Source of the DNA: Minisyncoccota bacterium
Lineage (GTDB): Bacteria > Patescibacteriota > Minisyncoccia > Minisyncoccales > GWA2-38-27
DNA: 64,000 bases
Direction: 5' to 3'
Assembly (NCBI GenBank): GCA_028697015.1
Contig: JAQVFW010000001.1
Span: 67,603 to 131,602, forward strand
Below are positions 3,171 to 63,675 of this stretch, in pieces. Every line of letters starts with the position of its first letter. The first letter of the stretch is position 1. Below the pieces are notes generated by a model. The model was not told the origin of the DNA and made no database searches. It worked only from the letters and a program-made list of their open reading frames with translations. Made by a program: the position numbers and the translations under genes.

Positions 3171-3584
3171 ATGTCAACAATAAACCAACTGGTAAAAAAA
3201 GGAAGAAAGAAAACGAAAAAAAAGGTTACAATGCAAGCCCTTACTTTTGGTTTTAATTCTTTAAAAAATAGGCCCAAAAAATATTCTTCTCCTTTTAAAA
3301 AAGGAGTTTGCCTTAAGGTGTTTACAGCTACCCCGAGAAAGCCGAATTCCGCTTTGCGCAAAGTAGCAAGAGTTCGTCTTACAAACGGAATGGAAGTGAC
3401 TGCCTTTATCCCCGGAGAAGGGCATAACCTTCAAGAACACTCCATTGTTGTTATAAGAGGAGGGAAGGTAAAAGATCTTCCTGGAGTAAGATACCATGTC
3501 GTAAGAGGGGTTCTTGATGCGGGAGGAGTTGAAAAGAGAAAACAAGGAAGAAGCAAATACGGGGCAAAAAGAGCCAAAAAGTAA
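3171..3584 (+). CDS. rpsL: 30S ribosomal protein S12
   Basis: [12 protein letters not shown]... [19 protein letters not shown]... is the typical S12 sequence. Confidence 0.97.
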
Positions 3585-3595
3585 AATATTGAAAA

Positions 3596-4057
3596 ATGGG
3601 AAAAATAAAAAAAAGACAAATAAATCCTGATTCTCTTTACGATAGTGTTGAAGTTTCAAAATTAATTAATCAGATAATGAGGATGGGGAAAAAAACTATT
3701 GCAAGAAAAATTGTTTATGGTTCTTTTGATATTATCAAAGAAAAAACCAAAAAAGAGCCGCTTGATATTTTTATTCTTGCTATTGATAACGTTTCTCCAA
3801 TCCTTGAAGTAAAGTCAAAAAGAGTAGGGGGTGCCACTTATCAAGTTCCTGTTGAGGTTAAAAGCGACAGGAAAATAGCATTGGCTTTCAGATGGATTAT
3901 AAACGGAGCAAAAAGTAGAAAAGGTAAGCCGATGAAAGAAGCTCTTGCTCTTGAAATTATTGACGCTTCAAATAATACGGGATGGGCGGCGAAAAAGAAA
4001 ACAGATACCCATAAAATGGCTGAGGCAAACAGGGCTTTTGCTCATTTTGCATGGTAA
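3596..4057 (+). CDS. rpsG: 30S ribosomal protein S7
   Basis: S7-like sequence ([19 protein letters not shown] ... AFAHFAW) in the conserved position after rpsL. Confidence 0.95.
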
Positions 4058-23060: not shown

Positions 23061-24941
23061 ATGGATTCGCTTAAATTAAGAGAAGATTTTTTGAGTTTTT
23101 TTGAGGAAAACGGGCATAAAATAGTTGCTTCCAGCTCTTTAATTCCGGAAGATAAAACCGTTCTTTTGACTTCTGCGGGGATGCAGCAGTTTGTTCCTTA
23201 TCTTTCCGGAGAAAAAGATATTCTTTCCGATTTTAAATCGCGCCATCTTGCCTCCGTTCAAAAATGTTTCAGGACTCCAGATATTGAAGAAGTAGGAGAT
23301 GATACTCACCACACTTTTTTTGAAATGCTTGGTAATTGGTCAATAGGGGAAGACAAAGATAAAGGGTATTTTAAAGAGGGAGCCATTGATCTGGCTTTCC
23401 GCTTTTTTGTAGACCGGCTTTTTCTTGATAAGGACAGAATTTGGATAACTATTTTTAAAGGAGAACAGGGGATTCCCAAAGATGAAGAATCATCTTTAAT
23501 ATGGCAAAAAAAAGGAATTCCGGAAGAAAGGATTTTGGAATTCGGATGGAAAGATAATTTTTGGGGGCCAACGTCAAAAGTTGGGCCATGCGGCCCTAGC
23601 TCTGAAATCCACTATGATAGAGGAGAGGAATTTGGATGTAAAAAACCGTCTTGTTCTGTCGGGTGCGATGATTGTAGAAGATTCGTAGAGCTTTGGAATT
23701 TGGTTTTTATGGAGTATAATAAGAATGAAGATGGTTCTTATACAAAACTTCCTCAAAGAAATGTTGATACAGGAATTGGTTTTGAAAGATTAATTTCTCT
23801 TCTTACAAAAAAAGAGTCGGCATACGAAACGGATCTTTTTATGCCTCTGATAAGGAAAATTGAAGAACTTTCTTTAAAAAAGTATAAAGAGAACAAAATC
23901 TTTTTTCGAGTCATATCCGACCATGTAAGAGGAGCTGTTTTTCTCATAACCGATGGGGTTCTTCCAAGCAATATAGAAAGAGGGTATATTTTAAGAAGAA
24001 TAATAAGAAGAGCTATAAGGTTTGGAAAAATAATCGATATGCCTAAAAATTTTTTGTCTTTACTTGCGAAAGAAGTCATTGAAAACTATAAAGGATTTTA
24101 TCCTGAAACGGAAAAAAGTAAATCTAATGTTTTAAATGTCATTAAGGAAGAAGGGGAAAAATTTGAAAAAACATTGGAAAGCGGATTAAAAGAACTTCAT
24201 AAAATTATTGAATGGTTTGATGATGAAAAAACGGTTCCGGAGGCAAATTTGTCAATCGGAGAAATTAAAGATTCAGATGATCCGATTAAAAAATGCAAGG
24301 AATTAGGTAGGAAATTATTTTTCCTTTACCAAAGCTTTGGCTTTCCTATTGAACAATCATTGGAAGAATTTAAAAATTTTAATGTCAAAATTATTTTTAA
24401 AAAAGAAGTTGAAGATGCCTTTAAAGAGCAATTTAAAGATCACCAAGAAATTTCAAGAGCTGGAGCAGAAAAGAAATTTGGAGGAGTCGGAGACAGGGAT
24501 GATTATAGGGCAGTTAAATATCATACAGCCACTCATCTTCTCCATAGAGCTCTTTATGAGGTTTTGGGGAAAAACGTAAAGCAAATGGGCTCTGATATTA
24601 CCAAGGAGCGTCTTCGTTTTGATTTTTCTCATTCTTTGAAAATGACAAAGGAGGAAATTAAGAAAGTCGAGGATATTGTCAATCAAAAAATAAAAGAGAA
24701 ACTAGAAGTAAGGAAGGAAGAAATAAGCTATGATGAGGCAATTAAAAGCGGAGCGTTTGCATATTTCAAGGACAAATACGGGGAAAAGGTAACAGTTTAT
24801 TCAATAGGAGATTTTTCAAAGGAGGTTTGCGGAGGGCCGCATGTTAAAAATACTTCCGAGCTTTCAGATTTTAAGATTATAAAAGAAGAATCAGCAGGAT
24901 TTGGCATAAGGAGGATAAGAGCCGTTTTGTCAGATTCTTAA
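23061..24941 (+). CDS. alaS: Alanyl-tRNA synthetase, short form (catalytic plus editing domains, no C-Ala domain)
   Basis: FFEENGHK, RFVELWNLVFMEYN, the editing motifs HTATHLLH and CGGPHV, and an end at 626 aa. Confidence 0.92.
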   Translation: MDSLKLREDFLSFFEENGHKIVASSSLIPEDKTVLLTSAGMQQFVPYLSGEKDILSDFKSRHLASVQKCFRTPDIEEVGDDTHHTFFEMLGNWSIGEDKDKGYFKEGAIDLAFRFFVDRLFLDKDRIWITIFKGEQGIPKDEESSLIWQKKGIPEERILEFGWKDNFWGPTSKVGPCGPSSEIHYDRGEEFGCKKPSCSVGCDDCRRFVELWNLVFMEYNKNEDGSYTKLPQRNVDTGIGFERLISLLTKKESAYETDLFMPLIRKIEELSLKKYKENKIFFRVISDHVRGAVFLITDGVLPSNIERGYILRRIIRRAIRFGKIIDMPKNFLSLLAKEVIENYKGFYPETEKSKSNVLNVIKEEGEKFEKTLESGLKELHKIIEWFDDEKTVPEANLSIGEIKDSDDPIKKCKELGRKLFFLYQSFGFPIEQSLEEFKNFNVKIIFKKEVEDAFKEQFKDHQEISRAGAEKKFGGVGDRDDYRAVKYHTATHLLHRALYEVLGKNVKQMGSDITKERLRFDFSHSLKMTKEEIKKVEDIVNQKIKEKLEVRKEEISYDEAIKSGAFAYFKDKYGEKVTVYSIGDFSKEVCGGPHVKNTSELSDFKIIKEESAGFGIRRIRAVLSDS

Positions 24942-41488: not shown

Positions 41489-41559
41489 TGCGGGGTGGTG
41501 GAGTAGTACCATTTGAGGCCCATAACCTCAAGGCGTCAGTGCAATTCTGACCCCCGCAA
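41489..41559 (+). tRNA. Initiator-like tRNA (anticodon CAU) with non-canonical D-loop, T-loop and C33
   Basis: Fold: TGCGGGG-TG-GTGG-AGTAGTA-CCAT-T-TGAGG-CCCATAA-CCTCA-AGGC-GTCAG-TGCAATT-CTGAC-CCCCGCA-A. The acceptor stem GCGGGG/CCCCGC plus A73 matches the E. coli tRNA-fMet acceptor stem as I remember it. Confidence 0.55.
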
Positions 41560-62913: not shown

Positions 62914-62986
62914 ATATCCTCCTTTGTCAAAGAACTTTACTTTCCTTTTAGATATTAATCTGGTGAAAATTTTTGTCAATGATAAT

Positions 62987-63014
62987 TTGACTTTTCTTAG
63001 TAACCTGATATCTT
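62987..63014 (+). promoter_or_regulatory. Possible promoter of the tRNA-Ala-like gene
   Basis: TTGACT, a 16-nt spacer, then TATCTT, about 30 nt upstream of 63047. The -10 box is weak. Confidence 0.3.
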
Positions 63015-63046: not shown

Positions 63047-63158
63047 GGGGCCGTAGCTCAATCAGGGAGAGCGCCTTTTCTTATGGACACTTTTCCGGCA
63101 ACCATGGTGCCGTCGTCCTTAAGGGGGGAAGTTGATGGTTCAAATCCATCCGGCTCCA
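63047..63158 (+). tRNA. tRNA-Ala-like gene (G3:U70) with ~40 extra nt forming stacked hairpins in place of a normal anticodon arm
   Basis: The 5' part is GGGGCCG-TA-GCTC-AATCAGGGA-GAGC-G. The 3' part is GATGG-TTCAAAT-CCATC-CGGCTCC-A. Between them, 60 nt lie where about 22 nt are expected. See the findings for the fold. Confidence 0.6.
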
Positions 63159-63240
63159 CTTTTTTTATTTTCTTTTTTTTTTATAATATAGGGGCGTTTT
63201 AGTCAAAGCGCATTAAGATTTTAAATTAAATAAAAATTAT

Positions 63241-63675
63241 ATGAATAAAAAATTAATTATATCTTTTGTTGTTGTTTTTTTTGTAATAATAGGAGGTTTT
63301 TTCTTTTTTAGCGGGAATAATTTAGAAGTTAATAATACTGAAAACAGTATTGAGCAGGAAAACTTAGAGAATTTTCCAGTTAAAGAATTCTCAATAGAAT
63401 CTTACAGCGAGATTATTGATGGGAATTTTTCACCTCGATTTTCATTAAGCGAAATCAATGTTCAGAAAGGCGATCTGGTAAGAATTAAAATCATGACGAC
63501 GAGCGGAATGCATGATTTCAAGATTGACGAATTTAATGTTTTTTCCGAGACTCCGGTAAATCAGGAAGTCGTTGTTGAATTTATTGCCGACAAAGCGGGG
63601 GAGTTTGTCTATTATTGCAGCAAGCCGATGCACAGAGATCTTGGTCAATGGGGATTGTTGAGAATTTCTGAATAA
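63241..63675 (+). CDS. Membrane-anchored cupredoxin-domain (type-1 copper-like) protein
   Basis: An N-terminal TM anchor. The ligand pattern is His in GMHDFKIDEF, then YYCSKPMHRDLGQWG (Cys, His, with Gln where the Met axial ligand usually sits). Confidence 0.7.
   Translation: MNKKLIISFVVVFFVIIGGFFFFSGNNLEVNNTENSIEQENLENFPVKEFSIESYSEIIDGNFSPRFSLSEINVQKGDLVRIKIMTTSGMHDFKIDEFNVFSETPVNQEVVVEFIADKAGEFVYYCSKPMHRDLGQWGLLRISE

Follow-up and report, generated by a model that had tools for sequence, protein, structure and literature searches.

The DNA considered here is a 64,000-nt stretch of contig JAQVFW010000001.1 (positions 67,603 to 131,602 of the forward strand) from the Minisyncoccota bacterium assembly GCA_028697015.1, lineage Patescibacteriota; this whole stretch is referred to below as the window. 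At 63047-63158 on the plus strand, it contains a stand-alone gene of 112 nt, accompanied by a promoter-like site and a T-tract, that has the body of a tRNA-Ala and carries, in place of the anticodon stem-loop, a long irregular hairpin (hereafter the rod) with no usable anticodon. The gene is surrounded by bacterial genes, namely those for DnaE, RNase HII, a two-domain metallophosphoesterase, and a cupredoxin-like protein, and the flanking proteins are also listed in NCBI records of metagenome-assembled genomes, e.g. GCA_028715565.1.

Architecture of the tRNA-like gene

The Rfam tRNA model RF00005 aligns end-to-end with the gene (model positions 1-71), and because the score of 45.1 bits compares with a gathering score of 29 and corresponds to E = 2.3e-6 over the whole window, the match is above chance. 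The initial annotation, which was derived from the letters of the DNA, had delimited the gene, paired its acceptor helix 7/7 with G3:U70 and A73, and described the D and T arms as textbook. The Rfam alignment bears out all these assignments, and the minimum free energy (MFE) fold agrees as to the acceptor helix, where the alanine identity pair is formed by 63049 and 63155. In the D arm region, U8, A14, G18, G19, and A21 are all in place, and A15:U48 is a possible Levitt pair. As judged from its sequence, the gene has lost none of the alanine identity elements (G3:U70, A73, and G1-G4 paired with C69-C72) and retains every element for the L-shape, namely U8, A14, G18, G19, and the T-loop UUCAAAU.

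The resemblance to canonical tRNA-Ala is thus extensive: the GGGG.../...CUCC acceptor, the D arm ...GGGAGAGCG, the 5-nt variable loop, the T arm, and even positions 27-28 (CC) and 42-43 (GG) are shared, and the cloverleaf as a whole is retained. The anticodon arm is where the two part. Unlike a canonical tRNA-Ala, the gene has no 5-bp stem with a 7-nt loop and a usable NGC anticodon; a 55-nt arm with 18 bp in total stands in place of the 17-nt anticodon arm. As originally noted, 60 nt (63074-63133) occupy the space where about 22 nt would be expected; in the Rfam alignment, some 51 nt are placed as an insertion within the anticodon arm. The parts of the gene and the adjoining signals are collected in Table 1.

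Table 1. Positions, within the window, of the parts of the tRNA-like gene and of the adjoining signals
Feature	Positions	Strand	Basis or remark
Promoter-like site: -35 TTGACT, 16-nt spacer, TG-extended -10 TATCTT	62987-63014	+	consensus scan
Acceptor stem, 5' strand GGGGCCG	63047-63053	+	Rfam alignment, MFE fold
D arm GCUC / AAUCAGGGA / GAGC	63056-63072	+	Rfam alignment
Long arm (rod) instead of anticodon stem-loop	63074-63128	+	MFE, pair probabilities
Rod, lower helix, 9 bp	63075-83 with 63120-28	+	MFE fold
Rod, U.U mismatch above lower helix	63084/63119	+	MFE fold
Rod, middle helix GGAC/GUCC	63085-88 with 63115-18	+	MFE fold
Rod, 7x2 internal loop	63089-95/63113-14	+	MFE fold
Rod, top helix CGGCA/UGCCG	63096-100 with 63108-12	+	MFE fold
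Rod, closing 7-nt loop ACCAUGG	63101-07	+	MFE fold
Variable loop AAGUU, 5 nt	63129-63133	+	Rfam alignment
T arm GAUGG / UUCAAAU / CCAUC	63134-63150	+	Rfam alignment
Acceptor stem, 3' strand CGGCUCC, and discriminator A73 (63158)	63151-63158	+	no encoded CCA
T-rich tract CTTTTTTTATTTTCTTTTTTTTTT directly 3' of the gene	63159-63185	+	sequence

The gene had been credited with a promoter and a T-tract of its own, and a promoter-like site as well as a T-tract after the gene are indeed found. If the promoter is functional, the transcript is predicted to start about 25-30 nt 5' of the mature 5' end. The T-rich tract is likely a 3' trailer or a termination signal; a simple terminator scan called no separate terminator hairpin at this tract, so that the tRNA-like helix itself would have to serve as the hairpin. 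Encoded CCA is also missing from 3 of the 4 ordinary tRNAs of the window, and hence CCA would probably be added post-transcriptionally.

The MFE fold of the whole RNA is a cloverleaf in which the acceptor, D, and T arms are normal and an irregular hairpin replaces the anticodon arm. Three stacked helices had been proposed for this hairpin. The middle and the top helix, with the closing loop, are recovered, but the outer CCTT/AAGG helix is not: its pairs have an ensemble probability of about zero, and a 9-bp lower helix in another register is more stable by 7.3 kcal/mol in the window and by 8.5 kcal/mol in the ortholog from a sister species (locus L152, see below). Because the favoured lower helix is in this other register, the strand TTCTTAT, which had been taken for an anticodon-loop-like strand with U33, A37, and CUU in the middle, is a helix strand rather than a free loop. 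Furthermore, an adjacent U/C swap in the ortholog (UUUUCUUAU to UUUCUUUAU) shifts the CUU by one position, which removes the Lys(CUU) reading; the notion of an insert at position 38/39, after a CUU anticodon loop, lacks support as well.

Among the tRNA finders, the Rfam model recognises the gene at full length, whereas ARAGORN makes no call at 63047-63158 in its default mode. Its intron mode does produce a tRNA-Lys(CUU) with a 19-nt intron; we reject this call as forced, given the mismatched stem, the 21-nt variable arm, and a CUU register that is not conserved in L152. Another rejected candidate is the apical hairpin CGGCA-ACCAUGG-UGCCG, which with its 5 bp, 7 nt, and central CAU might be mistaken for an anticodon arm: its distance from the elbow would be too great by about 13 bp, C33 and G37 flank the triplet, and the other members of the class described below have no counterpart of it.

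Conservation and distribution

Among the findings that, according to the initial annotation, would refute its reading are an assembly artefact and a hairpin repeated at many unrelated sites. Neither was encountered. Assemblies made independently from ENA, NCBI, Logan, and JGI samples, 10 in number, all have the same 112-nt sequence. The hairpin is single-copy in the data searched: a search of the window that tolerated up to 3 mismatches gave a single copy, viral contigs had no match, and among the 201 loci compared it is present at the orthologous site only. The occurrence of the same hairpin at several unrelated sites that characterises dispersed elements, such as miniature inverted-repeat transposable elements (MITEs) or repetitive extragenic palindromes (REPs), was therefore not seen in any of these three sets.

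An ortholog of the gene is found at the same site in the sister species L152, where the adjoining cupredoxin is 71% identical. The two elements agree at 104 of 112 positions (93%), at 50 of 55 positions of the rod, and at 35 of the 36 apical nucleotides of the rod. Outside the gene, the block 62966-62995, which the promoter-like site overlaps, is perfectly conserved (30/30), as against 30/51 in the leader and 61/83 in the downstream spacer (59-73% for the flanks); if the flank rate is taken as neutral, the probability of so few changes in the apical rod is 1e-7 to 2e-4. Four of the eight substitutions affect paired positions, and the pair is kept in all four cases: in the lower arm helix, U:G is changed to C:G, C:G to U:G, and G:U to A:U, and in the acceptor stem C71 is replaced by U71. 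The other four fall at unpaired positions; the differences outside the stems include one D-loop substitution and 63130 A to G in the variable loop. The T arm is identical, and G3:U70 and A73 are retained. At the sequence level, this comparison shows that the whole RNA, including the hairpin loops, is under purifying selection, and the conserved promoter block and element together have the appearance of an independent transcription unit, as would be expected for a working class of non-decoding, chargeable tRNA-like small RNAs (sRNAs).

Synteny yielded no additional orthologs of the window gene. Homologs of the upstream phosphoesterase (64-66% identical) occur in another gene order, beside an ordinary tRNA-Glu, and the more distant cupredoxin homologs P0123, P0125, and P0126 are preceded by HxlR and lack the element, an archaeal contig being the location of one of the three.

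Genes of similar architecture exist elsewhere in bacteria of the candidate phyla radiation (CPR). A first scan with the looser pattern GGGAGAGCGCC-N40-70-GGTTCRANTCC brought up no relatives, only archaeal tRNAs with introns, tRNAs in tandem, and chance matches. When metagenomes were scanned for tRNA-Ala bodies in which 46-76 nt separate the D arm from the T loop, 19 loci were obtained, 6 of which contain new tRNA-Ala-bodied genes. One of these, L136, is a short-intron case that is considered below. In the other five (L138, L139, L140, L145, and L149), a long hairpin of 15-20 bp replaces the anticodon arm, the hairpin sequences being unrelated, and the Rfam tRNA model calls all of them alike, at 40-50 bits. 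Three of the five loci, L140, L145, and L149 (the latter from Candidatus Staskawiczbacteria), form a second synteny group with the common neighbourhood TypA - MsrA - MsrB - (MFS) - element - hrcA-like - grpE - dnaK, where MFS is a major facilitator superfamily gene. At L162 (2912-3354, plus strand), a locus reached by tracing grpE in relatives, three long-armed tRNA-like genes stand in tandem between an MFS gene on one side and hrcA-grpE on the other. Only the middle one, L162A, is of the Ala type (GGGGCUU/AAGCUCC, G3:U70, with a 78-nt insert). The inserts of the second and the third gene, about 77 nt each, are Y-shaped and have a common base helix, GCUUG/CAAGU, with differing hairpin sequences; no Rfam ribozyme, riboswitch, or sRNA matched these Y-shaped inserts at E up to 1.

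Several features of these loci deserve mention in their own right. Homologous small open reading frames (ORFs) lie directly downstream of the rod-type gene in two CPR lineages (L140, 4334-4831, plus strand; L145, 2936-3250, minus strand) and could be part of a mobile element or encode a partner protein. At L149, the rod-type Ala-like gene is immediately preceded by an odd tRNA of 82 nt (3185-3266, minus strand), the anticodon loop region of which is about 10 nucleotides longer than usual and the T-loop of which, UCUUAAU, is without the TTC motif. At L161, a related locus that has no tRNA-like gene, msrB and the hrcA-like gene are separated by a stretch (about 3780-3950, plus strand) that is GC-rich, although the genome is AT-rich, and looks strongly structured; no Rfam family matches this stretch at its gathering threshold. 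Finally, L134, L135, L141, L144, L146, and L150 show a recurrent order in which a 5' fragment of tRNA-Ala is followed, after about 25 nt, by a complete tRNA-Ala(GGC), an arrangement that looks like the scar of an element integrating into tRNA-Ala.

Across 10 members of the class, the acceptor and T stems contain 1 mismatch in 120 pairs, with double compensatory changes at 5:68, 6:67, 7:66, 49:65, 50:64, and 51:63; G3:U70 is kept in 9 of the 10 (including both members found by synteny) and A73 in all 10. This covariation indicates that selection maintains the 'top half' of the molecule, with the 'bottom half' requiring only some structured extension.

The class appears to extend to phages. In a scan of viral contigs (IMG/VR, L166-L201), we found 35 Ala-acceptor tRNA-like genes of 96-124 nt with no usable anticodon, often embedded in ordinary tRNA arrays. 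In 28 of the 32 distinct sequences, 39-68 structured nucleotides replace the anticodon arm; the other 4 have an extra hairpin in the D loop and an anticodon arm reduced to a stub. No similar sequence was found in GenBank phage genomes. In about a dozen related phage contigs, the gene lies between a ParB-like DNA methyltransferase gene and the terminase/portal genes, often with HNH nearby, and the middle part of the gene is hypervariable; this group of phages has no translation-related neighbour of the gene.

Proposed function and competing explanations

Taken together, the alanine identity set, the lack of an anticodon, the selection on the arm, and the existence of a class favour one of the readings that the initial annotation had offered, namely that of an RNA that can be charged by alanyl-tRNA synthetase (AlaRS) and is not decoded. 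We estimate at somewhat above one half (about 0.55) the probability that 63047-63158 encodes a processed, alanine-accepting, non-decoding tRNA-like RNA that is derived from tRNA-Ala and whose arm is a lineage-specific module. The broader proposition, that it belongs to a widespread class of long-armed, anticodon-less tRNA-like RNAs of CPR bacteria and phages that are aminoacylated and work outside decoding, we put forward more tentatively.

The pathway can be envisaged as follows. The transcript would mature like a tRNA, with cleavage by RNase P at the 5' end, trimming at the 3' end, and addition of CCA, and would then be alanylated by the AlaRS that is encoded in the same window (23061-24941, plus strand). 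The identity of tRNA-Ala for AlaRS rests on the G3:U70 pair of the acceptor stem; charging may be expected because it is this stem, and not the anticodon, that the enzyme reads. The AlaRS of the window, a protein of 626 amino acids, has the catalytic tRNA-synt_2c domain and the tRNA_SAD editing module, and there is no Pfam match in it for the C-terminal C-Ala/DHHA1 domain, which in other bacteria contacts the tRNA elbow. Anticodon stems are of 5 bp, rarely 6 (PMC7609411). As the rod reaches about 13 bp beyond such a stem and has no anticodon, the RNA would be kept out of the decoding centre and would act outside codon reading. Its acceptor/T minihelix, the 'top half', would be the charged part recognised by enzymes, and the arm, which evolves fast, would serve each lineage as a module of its own, either to bind a partner or to keep the RNA off the ribosome. 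Downstream, the RNA could be a dedicated source of alanine for a tRNA-dependent transferase, or it could act on tRNA-binding proteins as a regulator or decoy. For the class at large, possible roles are those of dedicated aminoacyl donors for tRNA-dependent transferases or of modulators of tRNA-binding enzymes or defence nucleases, with the arm conferring specificity.

A number of observations weigh against this interpretation. Only one true ortholog was found, and the support for the arm consists of conservation and single-sided changes, with no double compensatory change seen in the arm between the two orthologs. The folding energy is ordinary as compared to shuffled sequences (z of -1.5 for the RNA in its entirety, of -1.6 for the arm by itself), 19 of 200 shuffles folding equally well, and in L152 the cloverleaf-plus-rod fold lies 2.2 kcal/mol above an alternative MFE structure. 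Long arms are found also on non-Ala acceptor stems (L162B and L162C), so that alanine may not be central to the class; besides, U70 and A73 were imposed by the search patterns on most members, only L152 and L162A being independent in this respect. In L159, L160, and L161, whose GrpE is 70-78% identical to that of L149, there is no tRNA-like gene at the syntenic site, the gap that separates the MFS or msrB gene from the hrcA-like gene, but only a CIRCE-like operator (controlling inverted repeat of chaperone expression); because close relatives of L149 lack the genes, these are dispensable and polymorphic for presence and absence. No candidate partner gene was found beside the element or among the approximately 30 ORFs of the window that were scanned with Pfam, in which neither RNase III, RNA ligase, SmpB, and RqcH nor a Fem-type transferase or Ro60 was detected, and the CPR elements have no recurrent neighbour. 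Lastly, a canonical tRNA-Ala was not found in the approximately 74 kb of the genome examined.

Among the alternatives, the one that survives best, albeit as an unlikely one, is that the rod is an intervening sequence of the RNase III type, or that the tRNA body is only a scaffold for processing, the product being an effector hairpin or a nicked, two-piece body, with aminoacylation irrelevant. Intervening sequences in rRNA are, indeed, hypervariable, sporadic hairpin extensions that replace the terminal loop of a conserved helix, and the rod likewise is an 18-bp, mostly helical extension instead of a terminal loop, hypervariable among lineages and sporadic in occurrence; the conservation of the arm-loop sequence between the two orthologs would fit an effector hairpin, and in the phage-type gene L136, the one excision to restore a tRNA-Ala(UGC) loop has junctions offset by 2 bp, in a geometry like that of RNase III. 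The analogy is limited, however, inasmuch as excision by RNase III from rRNA is harmless to its function, whereas the loop replaced here is the functional anticodon loop, so that the host RNA cannot keep its original role. Moreover, 18 bp broken by a 7x2 loop make a marginal substrate for RNase III, no rnc or ligase gene was detected among the scanned ORFs of the window, and this explanation leaves unaccounted for why G3:U70, A73, and the covarying acceptor and T helices are strictly maintained throughout the class while the arm varies.

A decoding tRNA interrupted by a short intron of a novel type, a possibility that the initial annotation had also raised, is quite unlikely. Some 38 nt (e.g. 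63084-63121) would then be removed and the ends joined, to give an Ala-charged tRNA with the anticodon UUA (or UAA/CUU). Intron-bearing tRNAs, whether with archaeal or eukaryal bulge-helix-bulge (BHB) introns, with bacterial group I introns, including those of Patescibacteria, or with the short 'enigmatic' introns of Lak megaphages, resemble the window gene in having extra sequence in the anticodon arm, which in the pre-tRNA is drawn out into a longer helix, and genes of this kind are missed or mis-called by standard finders (PMC13011429, PMC6784885); unlike them, the window gene has no exon anticodon, BHB, or group I core, and its arm is conserved like an exon. The P3-P9 core of a group I intron takes about 200 nt or more, the extra sequence here only about 38 nt, and the Rfam Intron_gpI family found no match. 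Where a BHB motif would have two 3-nt bulges separated by a 4-bp helix, the arm has a 1x1 mismatch and a 7x2 loop, 4 bp apart, and no exons join into an anticodon arm that would match the identity set, so that the early verdict of neither a group I intron nor a clean BHB is upheld. EndA and ligase were not found among the ORFs scanned, and a permissive Rfam scan of the element, at E up to 10, returned tRNA only, with no ribozyme, riboswitch, sRNA, or YrlA.

The splicing hypothesis was also put to a direct computational test, in which all single internal deletions leaving a 17-nt arm were considered. The strict version required a 5-bp stem, U33, and R37; the relaxed rules allowed one stem mismatch, C33, one additional spacer nucleotide, and a variable loop of 4-6 nt. 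Under neither set of rules can an NGC anticodon be obtained from any CPR member; for the window gene, the initial annotation had noted that no NGC lies in a canonical loop context. This gene has no strict solution, and its relaxed products read only UUA, UAA, CUU, UUU, and UAU, which is what the joining of any U-rich strand to an A/G-rich strand must give; the relaxed registers differ between the window gene and L152. For six other CPR members there is no solution even under the relaxed rules, and a canonical excision product arises in only 1 of the 32 distinct phage sequences, leaving 31 that lack one. It is true that, under relaxed rules, NNUUAAG loops are possible at the same coordinates in both orthologs (UCUUAAG in the window, CUUUAAG in L152), that the cut pair leaves a 2-nt 3' overhang, as in the 28-nt excision of L136, and that 'enigmatic' short tRNA introns have been described in Lak megaphages (PMC6784885). 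In the window, however, no solution has U33 in the normal one-nucleotide register (the product has C33), and a loop with U33, CUUUAAG, needs an extra spacer nucleotide in a register unlike that of L152. The product stem, CCUUU/GGGGG, is weak, with three consecutive G.U pairs, and alanine inserted at UAA, Leu, or Lys codons would be harmful, the genome using TAA as a stop (e.g. 63673-63675). The outcome of the excision test and the conservation of the arm, the apical part of which is as conserved as the exons, thus argue against splicing.

That the test can detect an intron is demonstrated by L136 (300-405, minus strand, contig Ga0255055_10030851), an Ala-bodied gene in a tRNA array of the phage type that also contains an ORF for an HNH endonuclease. 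Here, deletion of 28 nt between positions 34 and 35 produces CCGUC-CUUGCAC-GGCGG, a textbook tRNA-Ala(UGC) arm; mapped onto the fold of the arm, the junctions are staggered by 2 bp across the helix and leave a 2-nt 3' overhang, a geometry reminiscent of RNase III. L136 is a candidate for a short tRNA intron that is not of group I. It is this gene that resembles the short-intron tRNAs of the Lak megaphages, and the window gene differs from it.

A dead tRNA-Ala gene, in which a hairpin element has been inserted into or has replaced the anticodon arm and whose remnant has yet to decay, was the third reading offered at the start, and we regard it as very unlikely. The silence of ARAGORN in its default mode, the missing anticodon, and the absence of the genes from close relatives in the second synteny group are what a relic would be expected to show, and partial, integration-scar-like duplications of tRNA-Ala are common in metagenomes. 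A decaying gene, however, is hardly compatible with 93% identity between orthologs when the adjacent non-coding DNA is at 59-73% and the neighbouring protein at 71%, nor with pairing kept at all changed paired positions and a perfectly conserved promoter block; the hairpin is not a repeated element in the window, the viral contigs, or the 201 loci. This pattern of conservation, combined with the covariation within the class, makes the strongest case against a pseudogene.

A miniature transfer-messenger RNA (tmRNA) for ribosome rescue, Ala-charged and with the tag frame CAA CCA UGG UGC CGU CGU CCU UAA (63099-63122), is highly improbable: as in tmRNA, there are a G3:U70 identity pair and no anticodon, and a 7-codon frame ending in UAA can be read in both orthologs, but this frame is base-paired inside the rod, pseudoknots are absent, the complete D arm and the helical arm fill the space of SmpB, the arms of other members are too short or too different for a frame, the tmRNA mode of ARAGORN (-m) found nothing, and the best score with the tmRNA families was 15.5 bits (permuted tmRNA model), over the T arm and the downstream trailer.

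If the RNA is, as we favour, an alanine-accepting molecule that does not decode, its nearest functional analogue would still be tmRNA by virtue of its tRNA-like domain, which is charged with alanine and has no anticodon; the element, too, would be charged by AlaRS without decoding. Both molecules have Ala identity via G3:U70, a T arm, and a long irregular helix emanating from the tRNA-like part. Unlike the element, tmRNA has no D stem, measures about 350 nt, contains pseudoknots and a tag frame, and needs SmpB; the element, in turn, has a full D arm and 112 nt, its arm ends in a simple loop, and the tmRNA models do not match it. Another parallel is provided by the Bacillus cereus sRNA 'tRNA-Other' and by the polycistrons of 'irregular tRNAs' described by Mukai et al., chromosomally encoded RNAs of tRNA shape that are chargeable, apparently outside translation, in part tandem, and sporadic (PMC5389517). 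The tandem arrays of L162 and L149 are comparable. These RNAs differ in that their anticodon arm is of normal size, they are of the Lys, His, or Ser type, and their acceptor/T geometry is 8/4 or 9/3; none has been described with a long hairpin for an anticodon arm. The bacterial Y RNA-like YrlA (RF02553) combines a tRNA-like module, consisting of a T arm, a D arm, and an acceptor-like helix, with a long helix that takes the place of the anticodon stem (PMC4201824). In contrast to the element, the termini of which are at the acceptor end, YrlA is permuted, with its ends at the tip of the long, Ro-binding helix and a loop closing the acceptor helix, and for this reason it cannot be aminoacylated. 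The sole YrlA match, at 27 bits (gathering score 69), bridges two adjacent genes in L162.

Implications and further observations

In the open-access full-text literature, we found no description of long-armed, anticodon-less tRNA-like genes of CPR bacteria or phages. Annotation pipelines skip such genes or call them odd tRNAs, and the genes bear on tRNA gene counts and on calls of 'missing tRNAs' in CPR genomes. Known amino-acid-charged bacterial RNAs that work outside decoding are very few besides tmRNA, and the 112-nt element would be a compact case, with the AlaRS gene in the same window and relatives numbering in the dozens among CPR genomes and the tRNA arrays of phages. If charged, such RNAs would point to tRNA-dependent chemistry or regulation in minimal-genome organisms and phages; if spliced, they would contain the first short, non-self-splicing tRNA introns in bacteria.

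Two further observations concern other genes of the window. The cupredoxin-like gene next to the element (63241-63675, plus strand) is followed by a ferric reductase gene both in the contig of the window and at L121, L153, and L163, the relatives on the CPR side. Homologs of this cupredoxin are 65-67% identical; one of them, P0123 (L165), is on an archaeal-looking contig labelled Diapherotrites, with Spt5-NGN and L10P as neighbours, which suggests that this gene has passed between CPR bacteria and DPANN archaea. One of the two tRNA-Met(CAU) genes of the window (41489-41559, plus strand) has an odd T loop, GUGCAAU, that lacks TTC, and a U1:A72 pair; it may encode an initiator tRNA or a lysidine-type tRNA-Ile2 with a non-standard elbow.

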